From positions 3,844 to 67,843 of the forward strand of contig CAVPUD010000060.1 in NCBI GenBank assembly GCA_963708545.1: a stretch of 64,000 bases of DNA. Direction: 5' to 3'. The notes below the pieces were generated by a model. That model worked only from the letters and a program-made list of their open reading frames with translations, was not told where the DNA came from and did no database searches. Positions within the stretch are counted from its first letter, which is position 1. The number at the start of each line of letters is the position of its first letter. Origin of the DNA: an uncultured beta proteobacterium. Lineage in GTDB: Bacteria; Pseudomonadota; Gammaproteobacteria; Burkholderiales; Burkholderiaceae_C. Positions 3,835-25,967 of the stretch are shown piece after piece. A program made the translations under genes and the position numbers.

Positions 3835-3851
3835 TGCACCAATGCAGTGAA
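3835..3851. promoter_or_regulatory. Putative NtrC-binding site
   Basis: TGCACC-AATGC-AGTGAA resembles TGCACC-N5-GGTGCA, about 80 bp upstream of the sigma54 promoter. Confidence 0.5.
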
Positions 3852-11908: not shown

Positions 11909-13405
11909 ATGACATCGACCCCTGCATTGCACGAGCTGGGCGTGGCCGAACTCGCCGCCGAATTGCGCGCGCGCCGCATGTCCGCCGTCGAAGCGGCGCA
12001 GCATTTTCTGGCGCGCGCGCACACCCACCAGCACCTGGGCGCGTACCTTGCGCTGAATGAGGAAGCGACGCTCGCGCAGGCGCGCGCCGCCGATGCACGC
12101 CTGCAGGCCGGCACGGGCGGCCCGCTCGAAGGCGTGCCCATTGCGCACAAGGACATCTTCGTCACCCAGGACTTCCCGAGCACTGCGGGCTCGAAGATGC
12201 TCGCGGGCTACCAGTCGCCGTTCGACGCGACCGTGGTGCAGCGCCTGGCCGCGGCCGGCTGCGTGACGCTGGGCAAGCTCAATTGCGACGAATTCGCGAT
12301 GGGCTCGGCGAACGAGAATTCGGCCATCGCGCCGCTGGGCTTCGCCGCGCCCGCGCCGGTGCGCAACCCCTGGGACACCACGCGCGTGCCCGGCGGTTCC
12401 TCGGGCGGCAGCGCCGTGGCCGTGGCCGCGCGCCTGGTGCCGGCCGCGACGGGCACAGACACCGGCGGCTCGATCCGCCAGCCCGCCTCGTTTTGCGGCG
12501 TTACGGGCATCAAGCCCACCTACGGGCGCGCCTCGCGCTACGGCATGATCGCCTTTGCCTCCAGCCTCGACCAAGCCGGCCCCATGGCGCGCTCGGCGCA
12601 GGACTGCGCGCTGCTGCTGTCGGCCCTGTGCGGCCCCGACCCTGACCGTGATTCGACGAGCCTGGACCTGCCCGCCGAAGATTTCAGCGTGCGGCTGGGC
12701 GACAGTCTCGATGGGCTGCGTATCGGCATCCCCGCCGAGTTCTTCGGCGCAGGGCTGGCCGACGACGTGCGCGCCGCCGTCGAAGCCGCGCTCGAAGAGT
12801 ACGAAAAACTCGGCGCCACGCTCGTGCCCATCCGCTTGCCGCGCACCGAGCTGTCCATCCCGGTGTATTACATCATCGCGCCCGCCGAGGCGAGCTCCAA
12901 TCTGAGCCGCTACGACGGCGTCAAGTTCGGCCACCGCGCACGCGACTACACCGACCTCGAAGACATGTACAAAAAAACCCGCGCCGAAGGCTTCGGCGAC
13001 GAGGTCAAGCGCCGCATCATGATAGGCACCTACGTGCTGAGCCACGGCTACTACGACGCCTACTATCTGCAGGCGCAAAAAATCCGCCGCATGATCGCCG
13101 ACGACTTCCAGCAGGCCTTCACGCAATGCGACCTGATCGCCGGCCCTGTCGCGCCGAGCGTGGCCTGGCCCCTGGGCGCGCACGGCAGCGACCCGCTCGC
13201 CGACTACCTGGCCGACATCTACACCCTGCCGGCCTCGCTCGCGGGCCTGCCCGGCATGAGCGTGCCCGCAGGCTTTGGCGCGCACGGTATGCCCGTGGGG
13301 CTGCAGCTCATCGGCAATTATTTCCAGGAAGCCCGGCTACTGAACGCGGCGCACCGCTTGCAGCAGGTGACGGATTTTCACTTGCGCATGCCCGGGGGAT
13401 TGTGA
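11909..13405 (+). CDS. gatA: Asp/Glu-tRNA amidotransferase subunit A
   Basis: Amidase signature [21 protein letters not shown]. Confidence 0.97.
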
Positions 13406-17191: not shown

Positions 17192-19144
17192 ATGTCCGAT
17201 AGTTCCGATCCCATCTTTGCCGACCAGCCCGCCGAGGCCTCGACGCGCACCTTCACGCCGCCGCATGCCGAGGCGCTGTGGAAACTGGTCACCGTCCCGC
17301 ATCCGGTCATAGGCAAAGCCCACCATCTTGGCGAGGCGCTGGTGCACGCGGGCCTGATCAGCCCGTCCGTGCTCGCCGATGCGTTGCAGGTCCAGCGCCT
17401 GGAGCGCGAAAACGGCAAAGACCCGCAATTGGGGCAAATCCTGGTCAGCCACGGCCATGTCACGCCGGAGCAGCTGCAGCGCGTCATCGACAGCTGGCTG
17501 GGCGAATACGTGGTCGATCCTGGCAAGCTGGCGCCGGACCCTGCGGCCCTGGCGCTGGTGCCGCGCACGGTGGCCGAGCGCGAATCGGTGCTGCCGCTGC
17601 TGGCGCGCGACGATGCGCTGGTGCTGCTGATGGCCGATCCACACGACCGTATGTTGCTCGACGAGCTGCGCTTTCTGACGCAGCGGCGTCTGATACCTGT
17701 GCACGCCGCGCCGGGAACGCTGCTGCCGGCGGTCAGCCGTTTTTATGGTGGTGGCAGTGGTGCGACGGCGGGCGCGAAAAAGGCTGCGCCGGCCGCGGCG
17801 GGGGCCACAAACCAGCCCTCGACGGCGCAAGAACTCGCCTCCAGCCTGGATGCGGCGGGCAGCGACCTTGACATGACGCCAGCCGACGTCATCAGCGAAT
17901 CCGACAACACGCTGGTGCGGCTCATCAATTCGCTGATCACCGAGGCCATTGCCCACCGTGCCTCCGACATCCACATCGAAACCGAGCCACCGCCGCAGCC
18001 GGTGCGCATACGCCTGCGCATCGATGGCGACCTGCAACCCTATCTGGAGTTGCCTGCGCGCTATCGATTTGCATTGGTGGCACGCCTCAAGATCATGGCG
18101 GTCATGGATATTTCGGAGCACCGCAAGCCGCAGGACGGCAAGATCGACTTTGCGCGCTTCGGTGGCCCGCCGGTCGAGCTGCGCGTGGTCACGGTGCCCA
18201 CTTCGCGCGGGCTCGAAGACGTGGTGCTGCGTCTGCTCTCGGGTGCCAAGCCGCTGCCGCTCGATCAGATCGGCCTGAGCCCGGGCAATCTGGCGGGGCT
18301 GCGTACCTTGATGCGCAAGAGCTACGGCCTGATCCTGGTCTGCGGCCCCACGGGCAGCGGCAAGACGACCACGCTGCATTCGGTGGTGCGCGAGCTCAAC
18401 ACTGACAGCCGCAAGATCTGGACGGCCGAAGACCCGATCGAAATCTCGCAGGCCGGGCTGCGCCAGGTGCAGATGAACCCGCGCATCGGCTGGACCTTCG
18501 CCGCGGCGATGCGCACCTTTTTGCGCGCCGACCCGGACGTGATCATGATCGGCGAGATGCGCGACGAGGAAACCGCGCGCATCGCGATCGAGGCTTCGCT
18601 CACCGGGCACCTGGTGCTTTCTACCCTGCACACGAATTCGGCGCCCGAGAGCATCACGCGGCTGCTCGAAATCGGGCTCGATCCGTTCAACTTTTCCGAT
18701 TCGCTGCTCGGCATCCTGGCGCAGCGCCTGGTGCGGCGCCTGTGCACGGCCTGCCGTGCACCGCGCGTGGCCGAGGCCGACGAGCTCGACAGCCTGGCGT
18801 CGCAATATCTCGAAAGCGGTACCACCAACACGCCCGAAGTCCGTGCGGCGCTGATCGCGCAGTGGCGCCAGCGCTTCGGCGGCCAGGGCGGTGCGTTGCG
18901 CCTGTGGAAGCACGTGGGCTGCAAGGACTGCGAGGGCCACGGCTACCGCGGCCGCATGGGCATTCACGAGCTGATGCTGAGCGACGACACCATCCGCCAG
19001 CATATCCGCCACCGCGCACCAGCCTCGGATATTCGCCATTCGGCGCTCGCCGCCGGCATGCTGACGCTGCGCCAGGACGGCATCGAAAAAGTGCTGCAAG
19101 GCCTGACCGACATGCCCGAGGTGATCGCTGCGAGCAATTTGTGA
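17192..19144 (+). CDS. GspE/PulE/PilB-family secretion ATPase with N-terminal MshEN-like domain
   Basis: Walker A GPTGSGKTT, AEDPIE, RADPDVIMIGEMRD, STLHTN; N-terminal tandem HLGEALVHAGLI...Q / QLGQILVSHGHV. Confidence 0.93.
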   Translation: MSDSSDPIFADQPAEASTRTFTPPHAEALWKLVTVPHPVIGKAHHLGEALVHAGLISPSVLADALQVQRLERENGKDPQLGQILVSHGHVTPEQLQRVIDSWLGEYVVDPGKLAPDPAALALVPRTVAERESVLPLLARDDALVLLMADPHDRMLLDELRFLTQRRLIPVHAAPGTLLPAVSRFYGGGSGATAGAKKAAPAAAGATNQPSTAQELASSLDAAGSDLDMTPADVISESDNTLVRLINSLITEAIAHRASDIHIETEPPPQPVRIRLRIDGDLQPYLELPARYRFALVARLKIMAVMDISEHRKPQDGKIDFARFGGPPVELRVVTVPTSRGLEDVVLRLLSGAKPLPLDQIGLSPGNLAGLRTLMRKSYGLILVCGPTGSGKTTTLHSVVRELNTDSRKIWTAEDPIEISQAGLRQVQMNPRIGWTFAAAMRTFLRADPDVIMIGEMRDEETARIAIEASLTGHLVLSTLHTNSAPESITRLLEIGLDPFNFSDSLLGILAQRLVRRLCTACRAPRVAEADELDSLASQYLESGTTNTPEVRAALIAQWRQRFGGQGGALRLWKHVGCKDCEGHGYRGRMGIHELMLSDDTIRQHIRHRAPASDIRHSALAAGMLTLRQDGIEKVLQGLTDMPEVIAASNL

Positions 19145-21474: not shown

Positions 21475-22083
21475 ATGTCTGCCACATCCTTGAGCGCCGA
21501 AATCGCCAGCACCGCGGCCCGCCTGGCTGTGGAAGAAGGGCTCGAATGGGGTCCGGCCAAGCGCCGCGCGCTGCGTGTGCTGGGCCTGCCGGCGCGCACG
21601 CCGCTGCCCGACAACACCTTGGTCGAGGCCGCCGTGCGCGAGCACATTGCGCTCTTTTTCGCCGACACCCAGCCGCGCGAGCTGCGTGCGCTGCGCCAGC
21701 TTGCGCTCGCCTGGATGGAGCGCCTCGCGCAATTCCGCCCCCACCTCGGCGGCGCGGTCTGGCATGGCACGGCCACGCGGCTTTCCGATATTTACCTGCA
21801 ACTTTTCTGCGACGACCCCAAATCCGCCGAGATCGCCCTCATCAACCACCGCGTAGAGTACGAGCCACGCAGCGTGCCGGGCCTGCACGGCGCGCCCGTG
21901 GAGGCGCTGAGCATGTCCAGCCTTTCACCCGAGCTCGGCGAGGCGATCGGTGTGCACCTGCTGATCTACGACCTCGACGACCTGCGCGGCGCCCTGCGCG
22001 CCGACGCCCAGGGCCGCACGCCGCGCGGCGACATCGCAGCCGTGCGGCAGCTACTGCAAGAACCGCCGAATCCAAAACCATGA
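21475..22083 (+). CDS. Conserved hypothetical protein (nucleotidyltransferase-like fold possible)
   Basis: EIASTAARLAVEEGLEWGPAKRRA, GAVWHGTATRLSDIYLQLFCDD. Confidence 0.8.
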   Translation: MSATSLSAEIASTAARLAVEEGLEWGPAKRRALRVLGLPARTPLPDNTLVEAAVREHIALFFADTQPRELRALRQLALAWMERLAQFRPHLGGAVWHGTATRLSDIYLQLFCDDPKSAEIALINHRVEYEPRSVPGLHGAPVEALSMSSLSPELGEAIGVHLLIYDLDDLRGALRADAQGRTPRGDIAAVRQLLQEPPNPKP

Positions 22084-22655
22084 CTAAAGACAAGGCCAAG
22101 GCGGCGCCCGCACAGCCTGTAAATCCCGGTCGCCGTCGGCTGCTCTACGCCGGCGTCGCCGCTGCCGCTGCACTCGGCGGCGCCGCGCTGGCTTGGCGCA
22201 GACTTGCGCTTGATGACCCTTCCCCTGGTGTGGAGCAGGCGTTCTGGGCGCAGGAGTTCGACACCCCCGAGGGCGGCGCGCGCCTGGCGCTGCGCAATTT
22301 TGCGGGCCGGCCACTGCTGCTCAACTTCTGGGCCACGTGGTGCCCGCCGTGCGTTGCCGAATTGCCGCTGCTCAACACCTTTTACCGCGAACACCGCAAC
22401 GCCGGCTGGCAGGTGGTGGGCCTGGCGATCGACCAGCCGGCTGCGGTGCAACGCTTCTTGCAGCGCCAGCCGCTCGATTTTCCGATCGGCCTGGCCGCGC
22501 AGGGCGGCACCGAGTGGGCGCGCGCACTCGGCAACCTGGCTGGCGGATTGCCGTTTACCGTGGTCTTCGATGCCGCGGGCAAGGTGCGGAACCGTAAAAT
22601 CGGCGCGGCGAGCGATGCCGAACTGCAGCAATGGGCGGCGCTGCCACTGGGTTGA
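22080..22655 (+). CDS. TlpA-family thiol:disulfide oxidoreductase
   Basis: LLNFWATWCPPCVAELP; Tat-like RRRLL N-terminus. Confidence 0.92.
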   Translation: MTKDKAKAAPAQPVNPGRRRLLYAGVAAAAALGGAALAWRRLALDDPSPGVEQAFWAQEFDTPEGGARLALRNFAGRPLLLNFWATWCPPCVAELPLLNTFYREHRNAGWQVVGLAIDQPAAVQRFLQRQPLDFPIGLAAQGGTEWARALGNLAGGLPFTVVFDAAGKVRNRKIGAASDAELQQWAALPLG

Positions 22656-22821
22656 GTCCATTAGGCGGCGCTCAGACCTTTCATGCCCGCCTGCGCTCTG
22701 CGCGGTCGCGTGACGATCGCGTCAAATTGCGACAGATCATGAAAAATATCCGCCAAAGCGCAAAATTGGCCGAAATTGCAGTAAATTCGCGCCCTCTCGT
22801 TTCATCGTCTTCGGAGCACCC

Positions 22822-23265
22822 ATGGACTTGCGAAAGCTCAAAACCCTGATCGACCTCGTGTCCGAATCGAACGTCTCGGAACTCGAAATCACCGAAGCCG
22901 AAGGCAAGGTGCGTATCGTCAAGGGCGGCCCTGCCATGGTGCAGCAGTACGTCCCGGTGGCCGCGCCCGTGGCCACGGCGGCTCCCGCCGCTGCAGCAGC
23001 GGCCGAACTGCCCGCGCCTGCGGCCTTGCCGGGCCATGTGGTCAAGTCGCCCATGGTGGGTACCTTCTACCGCGCGCCCAGCCCCGGCGCCAAGCCGTTC
23101 GTCGAGGTGGGCAGCCAGGTCAAGGAAGGCGACACCCTGTGCATCATCGAGGCCATGAAAATCCTCAACGAGATCGAGGCCGACAAGGCCGGCACCGTGA
23201 CGCGCGTCCTCTGCGAAAACGGCCAGGCCGTCGAATATGGACAACCGCTGTTCATGATCGAGTAA
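22822..23265 (+). CDS. accB: Acetyl-CoA carboxylase biotin carboxyl carrier protein
   Basis: [24 protein letters not shown] biotinylation motif. Confidence 0.98.
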
Positions 23266-23273
23266 GGCGGCGC

Positions 23274-23631
23274 ATGTTCCAAAAGATACTGATCGCCAAC
23301 CGCGGCGGACATGCCGCAGGCATGGCGAAGCAAATTGCCCTGGCACGCGCAGCGTGCGGGCGATGAGCCGCGGGAGAAACCATGTTCAAAAAAATACTGA
23401 TCGCCAACCGCGGCGGACATGCCGCAGGCATGGCGAAGCAAATTGCCCTGGCACGCGTAGCGTGCGGGCGATGAGCCGCGGGAGAAACCATGTTCAAAAA
23501 AATACTGATCGCCAACCGCGGCGGACATGCCGCAGGCATGGCGAAGCAAATTGCCCTGGCACGCGTAGCGTGCGGGCGATGAGCCGCGGGAGAAACCATG
23601 TTCAAAAAAATACTGATCGCCAACCGCGGCG
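23274..23631 (+). repeat. Tandem 108-bp repeat (3 units plus the accC 5' end), each unit a 30-aa mini-ORF
   Basis: ATG starts at 23274, 23382, 23490 and 23598 (period 108); mini-ORFs 23274-23366, 23382-23474, 23490-23582 read MF(Q/K)[22 protein letters not shown](A/V)ACGR*. Confidence 0.97.
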
Positions 23632-24947
23632 AAATCGCCCTGCGCATCCAGCGCGCCTGCCAGGAGCTGGGTGTCAAGGCCGTGATGGTCTATTCCGAGG
23701 CCGACCGCGACGCCAAATACGTCAAGCTCGCCGAAGAGGCGGTGTGCATAGGCCCCGCGCCCTCGTCGCTGAGCTACCTCAACATGCCGGCCATCATCTC
23801 GGCCGCCGAGGTGACCGACGCCGAGGCCATCCACCCCGGCTACGGCTTCTTGAGCGAGAACGCTGATTTTGCCGAGCGCGTGCAAAAGAGCGGTTTCGAG
23901 TTCATAGGCCCCACGCCCGATGCCATCCGCATCATGGGCGACAAGGTTGCGGCCAAGCAGGCCATGGTGCAGGCTGGCGTGCCTTGCGTGCCGGGCTCGG
24001 AGGGCGCGTTGCCCGATGATCCCGTGCAAATCGGGCGCATCGCCCGCGCCGTGGGCTACCCCGTGATCATCAAGGCGGCGGGCGGCGGCGGCGGGCGCGG
24101 CATGCGTGTGGTGCACACCGAGGCAGCACTGATCAACGCCGTGCAAACCACCAAGTCCGAAGCGGCAGCAGCCTTTGGCAACCCCTCGGTCTATCTGGAA
24201 AAATTCCTGCAAAACCCGCGCCACATCGAGATCCAGGTGCTCGCCGACAAGCATCGCAACGCCGTCTATCTGGGCGAGCGCGACTGCTCCATGCAGCGGC
24301 GCCACCAGAAGGTGATCGAGGAGGCGCCGGCGCCCGGCATCCCGCGCCGGCTCATCGAGCGCATCGGCGAGCGTTGCGTGGCCGCGTGCAAAAAGATCGG
24401 CTACCGCGGCGCGGGCACCTTCGAGTTCCTGTACGAAAACGGCGAGTTCTACTTCATCGAGATGAACACCCGCGTGCAGGTCGAGCACCCGGTCACCGAG
24501 TGGATCACCGGCATAGACATCGTGCGCACGCAGATCATGGTTGCTGCGGGCGAAAAGCTGCCATTCACGCAGCGCCAGATCGAGCTGCGCGGCCATGCGA
24601 TAGAGTGCCGCATCAATGCCGAAGACCCGTACAAATTCACCCCATCGCCGGGCCGCATCACCATGTGGCACCCGCCGGGAGGGCCGGGTGTGCGCGTGGA
24701 TTCGCACATCTATACCAACTATTACGTGCCGCCGAACTACGACTCCATGATCGGCAAGCTCATCACGCACGGCGACACGCGTGAGCAGGCGCTCGCGCGC
24801 ATGCGCACGGCGCTCGCCGAAACGGTGGTCGAGGGCATACAGACCAACATCCCGCTGCACCGCGAGATGCTCGTGGATGCCAAGTTCATCGCCGGCGGCA
24901 CGAGCATTCATTACCTCGAAGAGTGGCTGGAGCAGCACAAGCGCTGA
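23598..24947 (+). CDS. accC: Acetyl-CoA carboxylase biotin carboxylase subunit
   Basis: [45 protein letters not shown]. Confidence 0.98.
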
Positions 24948-25013
24948 GGCTTTTGTCGCTTGCTTTGCGCCCCCGTGCCCAACTTTCGGCCGTTTTCACC
25001 CACCGTCCAAGCC

Positions 25014-25967
25014 ATGTTTGAATTGCGCCTGCTGTGCCCCGAGGACAGCGTCGAGCCCGTGAGCGACGCGCTCGAGGCGCTCGACGCCCTGAGCGTTTCG
25101 GTCGAGGATGCCGACGCGCAGACCGAGGCCGAGCAGGCGCTGTTCGGTGAGCCCGGCATGCCGCCGCCGCGCGAAGGCTGGCAGCGCAGCCGCGTGCTGG
25201 CGCTGTTTGCCACCGAAGAGGCAGCGCAGCAGGCGCAGCAGCTGCTCGCCGTGCAGGACTTTTTTGCCGGCTGTGCGGTGCTCGGCCTGGCTGCCGTGCC
25301 CGAGCAGGACTGGGTGCGGCTGACGCAGGCACAGTTTGCGCCCGTGGAGATCACGCCCGACTTCTGGATCGTGCCCAGCTGGCACGACTTGCCACCGCAG
25401 GCGCGACGCAGCCTGCGGCTCGATCCGGGGTTGGCCTTCGGCACGGGCACGCATCCCACCACGCGCATGTGTCTGCGCTGGATGGCACGCCAAGCGCAAC
25501 AGGCCACTGCGGCGGACGCCGCGCAGCACAACGCTGGCGCAGTGCAGGCCGTGAATCCATTCGGGCGTGTGCTCGACTACGGCTGCGGCTCGGGCATCCT
25601 GGCGCTGGGCGCGGCCCTGTTCGGGGCGACCGAGATCGACGCCGTCGACATCGACCCCGCCGCCGTGCAAGCCACGCTGGAAAACGCGCGCGCCAACGGT
25701 GTGCAGGCCCCGGGCGTACAGCTGCGCGCGGGCTTGCCGGAGCTTGCGCGGGGCCAGTACCAGACCGTGTTTGCCAACATCCTCGCGAGCCCGCTCAAGG
25801 TGCTCGCGCCCTTGCTGTGCGCCCATGTCGCGCCGGGCGGCTGGCTCGTGCTCGCAGGCATCCTCGAGCGCCAGGCGCAGGAGCTGCAAGAGGCCTATGC
25901 CCCGTGGCTACGCCTCGAAGTGGCCGACACCGAAGACGGTTGGATTCTGATGACCGGCATGCGCTGA
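25014..25967 (+). CDS. prmA: 50S ribosomal protein L11 methyltransferase
   Basis: LDPGLAFGTGTHPTT, VLDYGCGSGIL, ANILA. Confidence 0.96.
   Translation: MFELRLLCPEDSVEPVSDALEALDALSVSVEDADAQTEAEQALFGEPGMPPPREGWQRSRVLALFATEEAAQQAQQLLAVQDFFAGCAVLGLAAVPEQDWVRLTQAQFAPVEITPDFWIVPSWHDLPPQARRSLRLDPGLAFGTGTHPTTRMCLRWMARQAQQATAADAAQHNAGAVQAVNPFGRVLDYGCGSGILALGAALFGATEIDAVDIDPAAVQATLENARANGVQAPGVQLRAGLPELARGQYQTVFANILASPLKVLAPLLCAHVAPGGWLVLAGILERQAQELQEAYAPWLRLEVADTEDGWILMTGMR

Follow-up and report, generated by a model that had tools for sequence, protein, structure and literature searches.

Within the 64,000-nt stretch analyzed (hereafter the window; contig CAVPUD010000060.1 of assembly GCA_963708545.1 from an uncultured beta proteobacterium, positions 3,844 to 67,843 of the forward strand), accC, the gene for biotin carboxylase (BC), was separated from accB by three tandem 108-bp units, each consisting of the first 34 nt of accC (segment A) and a 74-nt insert (segment B). 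The site at which B lies in accC recurs in antisense orientation within the 3' part of B, and a covarying helix between the two appears to lock the true start of the gene; this is the defining feature of the structure and is new here. The best explanation, which we consider probable although far from secure, is a translational relay: a leader cassette with a masked start, which would pass ribosomes on to accC and would have been spread by recombination.

Architecture of the array

Tandem Repeats Finder reported a single array at 23273-23631 (period of 108, 3.3 copies, 98% matches, 0 indels), and the division of each unit into A and B followed from direct reading of the sequence. The upstream gene, accB (22822-23265; forward strand, as are all of the features below), encodes biotin carboxyl carrier protein (BCCP; NCBIfam TIGR00531, 181.9 bits versus a cut-off of 115.2) and ends with TAA at 23263-23265. 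The first ATG, at 23274, lies 8 nt past this stop and opens the upstream copy of A (A_up, 23274-23307; ATGTTCCAAAAGATACTGATCGCCAACCGCGGCG), which now serves as the start of mini-open reading frame (mini-ORF) 1. Unit 1 (23274-23381; A, 23274-23307 and B, 23308-23381), unit 2 (23382-23489), and unit 3 (23490-23597) contain mini-ORFs at 23274-23366, 23382-23474, and 23490-23582, respectively, and the true start of accC (23598-24947; NCBIfam TIGR00514, 738 bits versus a cut-off of 626.5) is ATG at 23598. The mini-ORFs encode peptides of 30 amino acids each, beginning with MF(Q/K) and ending, after 22 further residues, with (A/V)ACGR; peptides 2 and 3 are the same, and no family match was found for them in NCBIfam. 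Each mini-ORF stops at a TGA located 15 nt ahead of the next ATG, and GGGAG is found 5 nt upstream of that ATG. Units 2 and 3 are identical, and unit 1 departs from them at 3 positions. The original prediction, made from the letters of the window, had described the three units, mini-ORFs, hairpins, and ribosome-binding site between accB and accC, and was right in every detail. Its proposal that the first ATG is the ancestral start of accC was borne out by a genome of the same genus (G002), in which the empty site has the identical flank TAAGGCGGCGC-ATG.

In an alignment of 81 cassettes, B (~74-105 nt across the family) contained from 5' to 3' a first hairpin, a mini-hairpin with a GNA loop, a decoy segment (B-mid), hairpin 3, an anti-target strand (B3'), and a Shine-Dalgarno (SD) sequence; the positions given here are those of unit 3, with the copies in units 1 and 2 in parentheses. 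Hairpin 1 (CATGCC-GCA-GGCATG, 23526-23540; 23310-23324 and 23418-23432) is kept in relatives with a changed stem (CTGGCC..GGCCAG, CTTGCC..GGCAAG, or CGCGCC..GGCGCG), and across the alignment the stem varied freely around a loop that was mostly GCA or GAA. Its register differs between sub-families, so that no single alignment applies to it. The mini-hairpin reads GCGAAGC (GC-GAA-GC, 23541-23547; 23325-23331 and 23433-23439) in this genome and GGC-GAA-GCC in its family form; it (helix 1 of alignment A1) was 84% paired, with two-sided changes in 3/3 pairs. B-mid (AAATTGCCCTG, 23548-23558), which encodes QIAL, repeats imperfectly and in direct orientation the stretch of accC that follows the insertion, AAATCGCCCTG; its consensus is AAATTGCC(C)TG, and it follows the host gene, with GCNCTG in accC and GCCTG in IAC-type paralogues. 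Hairpin 3 (GCACGC-GTA-GCGTGC, 23559-23573; 23343-23357 and 23451-23465) has the family form GCACGC-GNA-GCGTGC, with 94% of cells paired and compensatory changes in 5/6 pairs. Taken together, hairpin 3 and the mini-hairpin gave 97 compensatory (double-change) cells versus 23 ± 7 in shuffles. B3' (23574-23589; consensus GCAGGCGATTTCACCGCGG, accC form GGGCGAT-GAG-CCGCGG) includes the TGA of mini-ORF 3 (23580-23582), and GGGAG, the SD sequence of the true accC start, at 23588-23592 and 5 nt before ATG, partly overlaps the helix described below. No intrinsic terminator was recognized, there being no U-run after any hairpin of the unit, and direct reading revealed no terminal inverted repeats at the ends of B (GACATG.. 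and ..GAGAAACC). No match at E <= 1 was obtained among 4227 Rfam covariance models for positions 22600-24000 of the window.

The proposed masked start and relay

The insertion point lies after the first base of codon 12 (GGY G|AA ATC), i.e. after 23631. The sequence of this site, CCGCGGYG|AAATCGCCTGC, recurs in B3' as its reverse complement, so that B3' pairs with the last bases of the true start copy and with the codons next to them. In accC, this partner is the target strand CCGCGGCG|AAATCGCCC (codons 9-14, 23624-23640; the bar marks the insertion point), as indicated by pairing, covariation, and folding. The mean energy of the B3':target duplex was -36.6 kcal/mol versus -21.9 kcal/mol for shuffled B3', with z < -2 in 92/103 cassettes. 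In the alignment of 81 cassettes, the helix comprised 19 pairs with 88% of cells paired, and this decreased to 32-47% when the partner was slid by 1-3 columns; compensatory cells numbered 104 versus 32 ± 4 in shuffles. Covarying pairs were found at synonymous sites (GAA/GAG with U/C, and position 3 of the Gly codon with the complementary base) as well as at the IAC/IAL difference between hosts (with A/G). G.U pairs exceeded A.C mismatches, with 62 versus 19 in the B3':target helix and 27 versus 5 in the hairpins; it is therefore the sense strand, in the simplest case mRNA, that is under constraint. Unit 3 together with the accC start folded at -69.2 kcal/mol versus -58.4 ± 4.3 kcal/mol for shuffled sequences (z = -2.5), and the centroid fold kept the helix between 23574-23589 and 23624-23640, enclosing both the SD sequence (23588-23592) and ATG (23598). 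The initiation region is thus flanked by a 19-pair helix backed by covariation, which overlaps the SD sequence by two G.

When B was folded without the downstream gene, B3' paired with B-mid in 69/88 cassettes; B3' accordingly has two exclusive partners, B-mid when B is alone and the target once the true start is present. The decoy was usually weakened by one G.U pair (ATTGCC versus ATCGCC). The original prediction had overlooked both of these features, namely, the antisense strand in the 3' part of the insert, which locks the true start, and the role of the QIAL segment as a decoy that competes for this strand. A side observation from the same genome concerned a profile of B, which gave weak minus-strand matches at uninterrupted BC starts (C4:2734-2773, C3:4768-4819, C140:9833-9857, and C102:35297-35323); these matches independently mirror the antisense relationship between B3' and the BC motif.

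The stops of the mini-ORFs were placed between -35 and +16 of the next start in 118/118 units, and 66 of these were at +5 (ATGTTTAA/GA), where TTT as codon 2 forms TAA, TGA, or TAG with the next two bases. Unit length was 1 mod 3 in 78/118; in this genus, the 108-nt unit is in frame, and the mini-ORF is closed by the TGA within B3'. Codon usage at the second position of the true start depended on the stop: TTT and TTC were found at a ratio of 60:3 when the stop overlapped the start, whereas TTC prevailed when the stop lay ahead of it (TTC:TTT, 19:10) and in uninterrupted BC genes (17:7). An SD-like motif was present at -16 to -4 of the true start in 88/92 cassettes. An upstream ORF that ends within a few nt of an SD-bearing downstream start is the arrangement of termination-reinitiation coupling. 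Stop positions, TTT/TTC usage, and the SD statistics together pointed to selection for ending the mini-ORF at the true start, for which there would be no reason unless the mini-ORF is translated. In this respect, the translational relay that the original prediction had offered as one of two readings was largely supported by the placement of all stops by the next start, the SD-like motifs, and the apparent choice of TTT where it makes an overlapping stop. Its suggestion that the number of units tunes the AccC:AccB ratio is pure inference.

We propose the following sequence of events. Ribosomes would start at the ancestral ATG, 8 nt past the accB stop, by means of the native signals and would translate the 30-amino acid mini-ORF through B. 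In resting mRNA, B3' would be paired with codons 9-14 of the true accC, leaving a loop of ~45 nt around the SD sequence and ATG, so that independent initiation would be hindered. A ribosome on the mini-ORF would melt the B3':target helix and terminate beside the next start: 15 nt upstream of it in this array, and overlapping it at ATGTTTAA/GA in most relatives. It would then re-initiate, and the relay would continue unit by unit to the real accC. The interrupted gene would thereby keep its original translational control, which is coupling to accB in this case.

Distribution, spread, and alternatives

A census of the family was performed with a pattern of two BC "ANRG" cores one unit apart, the reversed pattern being the control. 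The pattern was found in 83/401 genomes and 61/201 genera, with 0 hits for the reversed control; chance is therefore excluded, and the statement in the original prediction that short ORFs with the same 11-residue N-terminus occur ahead of BC genes turned out to be correct. The 103 non-identical instances comprised 27 in accC, with the rest in at least 7 other BC paralogue clusters; 91 loci carried one unit, 9 carried two, and 3 carried three (118 units in total). The architecture was also present in isolate and complete genomes. Four genomes of the genus carried 0, 1, 2, and 3 units at accB-accC behind the identical flank, and related accB-accC units with different hairpin stems were found in other genera. 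A wider scan with one genome per species yielded at least 120 matches; among those listed were Rhodocyclales, Methylophilus, Ferrigenium, Hydrogenophilales, and Vitreoscilla, together with two from Gammaproteobacteria, Marinobacterium and Phytopseudomonas. Three cyanobacterial matches (L131, L144, and L162; Scytonema, Limnothrix, and Nostoc) were rejected as false positives in tetratricopeptide repeat (TPR) proteins (..KANRGEIE..). Their 120-bp tandem TPR-like repeats, ..L(K/Y)ANRGEIEEAIALYQQSL.., match the motif by chance and are a trap for a pattern-based census.

The genome of the window contained a second cassette (L060; contig C4:2585-2745) with a 124-nt unit, in a BC paralogue with an MFDTLL-type N-terminus located downstream of an enoyl-CoA-hydratase-like gene. 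This gene shows its own first 34 nt, a 90-nt insert, and then its own start again as TTG. The insert is at a position identical to that in accC, after AACCGCGGTG and before AAATCGCC, and the stop of the mini-ORF, TGA, overlaps the TTG true start (TTGTTTGA). The other 5 BC paralogues of this genome are uninterrupted. In the 2.98-Mb assembly, blastn-short and nhmmer searches with B found only C60 (3 copies) and C4 (1 copy), and a covariance model of B matched only BC-start loci in 41 genomes; B is therefore not a dispersed repeat of the repetitive extragenic palindromic (REP) or miniature inverted-repeat transposable element (MITE) type. The REP-like nature suggested in the original prediction was not upheld for this reason, and both types were ruled out, B having neither other copies nor terminal inverted repeats. 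A MITE is further contradicted by the ends of B, which are not inverted repeats, and by the flanking direct repeat of ~32-37 nt in place of a short target-site duplication. In the literature that was searched, nothing was found on such a structure ahead of BC genes.

Two side observations concern the detection of cassettes. The accB-accC spacer of G008 (L008) appears to hold an old cassette in which B is still recognizable (..GCGAAGCAATTTGCGCAGGCACGCCTGGCGTGC..) and the upstream start copy has decayed (ATGCTTGAAAGACGATTGCGTACCCATCTTGGC); since the covariance model missed it at E <= 0.01, decayed cassettes are under-counted. A contig of another relative (L038, G019:C45) ends at 17215 inside a cassette, just past the upstream start copy, and cassette repeats probably break short-read assemblies.

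Regarding origin, arrays of 0-3 units within the genus could have arisen by unequal recombination between the 34-nt A repeats, and recombination between A copies would also remove a cassette precisely. Spread to new BC genes and genomes may have proceeded by homologous recombination or gene conversion, with the extremely conserved BC motif DNA that flanks the insertion point, ..ATCGCCAACCGCGGYG and AAATCGCCTGC.., as the arms. The identity of B between paralogues of one genome was 0.80-0.86, versus 0.64-0.72 for host coding DNA; on the other hand, orthologous accC cassettes of different genomes were 0.71 identical in B and 0.83 in coding DNA. Cassettes have thus been copied or converted between BC genes within genomes, B being more alike than the host DNA. 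At four loci (L065, L024, L129, and L130), the 5' part of the true-start copy is of the canonical ATGTTT.. type and differs from the native upstream copy, the two becoming identical only at the conserved core; such donor-like copies would fit recombination through the conserved BC motif. Irrespective of the location of the native ATG, the left edge of the duplication is ~32-37 nt from a fixed point, in agreement with the alternative part of the original prediction, an element that duplicates the 5' end of the gene. In MKKVL-type genes (cluster 3), 3-6 nt upstream of ATG are duplicated too, and the duplication seems longer; in genes with longer N-termini, their own ATG is not duplicated; and in the MFDTLL-type gene on C4, both copies are native in type. 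Neither of two simple schemes covered all of these cases. Strict fixed-length target duplication fits only partially, since the boundary varies (~32-37 nt), the MKKVL-type duplication seems longer, and some true-start copies are donor-like, while simple one-step gene conversion between paralogues fails for the MFDTLL-type gene.

Several of our own results weigh against the relay and its spread by recombination. Gene conversion predicts a donor-type true-start copy, so the local duplications in the MFDTLL-type and MKKVL-type genes count against it and look more like target duplication of a fixed length. Internal units can pair downstream by the CCGCGG part of B3' only. The six codons left free by the search pattern showed 197 synonymous and 73 nonsynonymous differences between A_up and the downstream copy (A_down), and synonymous:nonsynonymous differences between genomes were 1455:479 in A_up versus 1456:232 in the functional copy. 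Because the differences are mostly synonymous, the upstream copy is not a decaying pseudo-start, and yet a simple relay has no need of its 11-residue peptide. This constraint may be attributed either to fast turnover, with A-A deletion or exchange with empty alleles, or to a leader-peptide function of its own. That the mini-ORFs are translated, and that accC depends on them, is deduced from sequence statistics only. Moreover, the copy number of 3 is that of the assembly alone (2.98 Mb, 167 contigs, 65.8% G+C). From unit 2 through the accC start, the period-108 repeat is perfect over 250 nt, and in a short-read metagenome-assembled genome (MAG) the count may therefore be off by one unit.

A mobile element with its own trans-acting machinery, inserting site-specifically at GGYG|AAATCGCC under the guidance of B3' and duplicating ~34 nt of the target, is a first alternative; the relay would then be a secondary adaptation that renders the insertion harmless. 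It is favored by a duplication that ends ~32-37 nt left of a fixed point regardless of the native ATG, including the extra 3-6 nt in MKKVL-type genes, by the ~19-nt target complement in B, which follows each host gene, and by B copies common to paralogues within one genome. Its patchy distribution, with empty sites in close relatives, and GNA triloops, which are stable loops in single-stranded DNA, in all three hairpin types are also in accordance with mobility. However, no copy away from BC genes, no terminal inverted repeats, and no linked enzyme were found in covariance-model and profile searches, and a target duplication of ~34 nt far exceeds the 2-15 bp of most transposons. The boundary of the duplication is also not sharp and seems to extend further in cluster 3, while the wobble asymmetry and the stop and SD statistics are explained by a function in mRNA without a guide role. 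We regard such an element as rather unlikely. A riboswitch- or attenuator-like leader is less likely still; B3' would switch between B-mid and the target in response to temperature, a metabolite, a BCCP- or BC-like protein, or ribosome speed on the conserved leader peptide, and carboxylase synthesis would be regulated accordingly. The two states of B3' noted above, the consistent weakening of the decoy by a G.U pair, the constraint on the N-terminus of the leader peptide, and the confinement of the cassette to one enzyme family are what would be expected of it. Nevertheless, the patchy presence and a unit number of 0-3 within one genus argue against a needed regulator, one cassette serves functionally different carboxylases, and the unit has neither a terminator nor a match in Rfam. 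As the hairpin stems vary freely, no conserved unpaired region resembling a ligand pocket was visible.

The least probable explanation, to which we give hardly any credit, is that the array is either an artefact of assembly or a functionless local tandem duplication undergoing neutral decay. The MAG is fragmented, identical units 2 and 3 could have been miscounted, and the contig of a relative ends inside a cassette; on the other hand, isolate and complete genomes have the same architecture, and unit 1 is distinct from the other two at 3 positions. The observed covariation, placement of stops, and bias at codon 2 would be unexpected in a neutral duplication, and neutral decay was ruled out by covariation together with the excess of synonymous differences. 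Two further candidates were rejected. Programmed translational bypass (T4 gene 60 type), in which the ribosome would hop from Gly-11 of the upstream copy to Gly-11 of the true copy, is contradicted by the absence of a stop after codon 11, by the SD sequence and ATG of the true copy, and by Gly-11 codons that differ between the two copies (GGG/GGC in L002, GGC/GGT in L003, and GGG/GGT in L027). A leader-peptide transcription attenuator does not agree with the absence of a U-run after any hairpin.

Relation to known systems and additional observations

Termination-reinitiation with a structure-masked start is known from the MS2 coat-to-lysis/replicase junctions, Escherichia coli rpmI-rplT, and overlapping ATGA/TAATG junctions. 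As in these systems, the upstream ORF of the cassette ends at or beside the next start with an SD sequence before the restart, and the start is enclosed by a helix with an upstream strand, which would be opened by a translating ribosome. In contrast, the upstream ORF of the cassette is a duplicated stump of the same gene, its masking strand corresponds to codons 9-14 of the gene itself in antisense orientation, and the whole is portable, being found at one codon of many paralogues and repeated in tandem. REP sequences and REP doublets forming hairpins (REPINs) are dispersed through a genome in tens to hundreds of copies, most of them extragenic, and are associated with a RAYT (IS200/IS605-like) transposase, whereas MITEs are bounded by terminal inverted repeats and duplicate a short stretch (2-10 bp) of their target. 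The cassette resembles these elements (the MITEs including Correia/NEMIS, ERIC, and RUP) in being short, rich in hairpins, devoid of an encoded enzyme, patchy among close relatives, and able to supply expression signals, and it resembles Rickettsia palindromic elements (RPEs) in being located inside ORFs without killing them. It differs from all of them in its restriction to the starts of BC genes, without dispersed copies or terminal inverted repeats, and in a flanking duplication of ~34 nt, not a few bp; it would also be bypassed by restart and not read through in frame. Leader-peptide attenuators of the erm, cat, and trp type similarly have a short leader ORF ahead of the gene and alternative pairings of a strand that covers the start, which are predicted for the cassette by folding. 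The cassette, however, has no terminator, known stalling motif, or regulatory codons; its leader is a copy of the N-terminus of the regulated protein, and it is dispensable in close relatives.

The working principle, termination-reinitiation with a masked start, is thus known, while the packaging matches none of the families compared: a single codon of one enzyme family, a decoy plus an antisense copy of the site, flanking by the duplicated gene start, and tandem repetition. We tentatively suggest, as a possibility more doubtful than probable, that "start-duplicating relay cassettes" represent an unrecognized class of elements, which copies itself under antisense guidance into one conserved 5' codon of a gene family with a ~34-nt duplication and is rendered harmless by a built-in relay. 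Such a cassette would do in translation what introns do for RNA and inteins for protein.

The essential nature of accC and an accC:accB ratio that is thought to be tightly set give these cassettes some practical weight, and approximately one fifth of Comamonadaceae-type genomes have at least one BC gene start split in this manner. If the relay is correct, it is a compact and portable natural device that couples translation across an insertion and locks a start codon by means of an antisense strand derived from codons of the same gene, which is of interest to synthetic biology. Since relatives carry 0-3 units, it would also provide a clean natural system for studying reinitiation efficiency. 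Annotation would be aided as well: the last ATG would be assigned as the true start, and the mini-ORFs would not be taken for pseudogenes or frameshifts. A mobile element, if that explanation held, would represent a new way for selfish DNA to live in essential genes. In either case, tandem "false starts" in MAGs can be real biology and not assembly noise.

The neighborhood of the array contains a putative thioredoxin-fold (WCPPC) ORF upstream of accB (21546-22655) and a putative PrmA-like methyltransferase ORF downstream of accC (24960-25967); we take the region to be an ordinary accB-accC-prmA neighborhood. Very long antisense ORFs near accB-accC are artefacts of GC content. Just upstream of an uninterrupted PCC-type BC gene of the same genome (C71:~12395-12440), there is a 22-bp direct repeat, GATTCGATGATATCAAGGCAT / GATTCGATGATATCAA, which is unrelated to B. 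In several genera, accB-accC spacers of 135-400 nt (L004, L009, L014, L017, and L018) contained other long, hairpin-rich inserts that are not B-like; in one of them (L004, G023), such an insert lies upstream of two B units. The accB-accC junction seems to be generally receptive to structured DNA.

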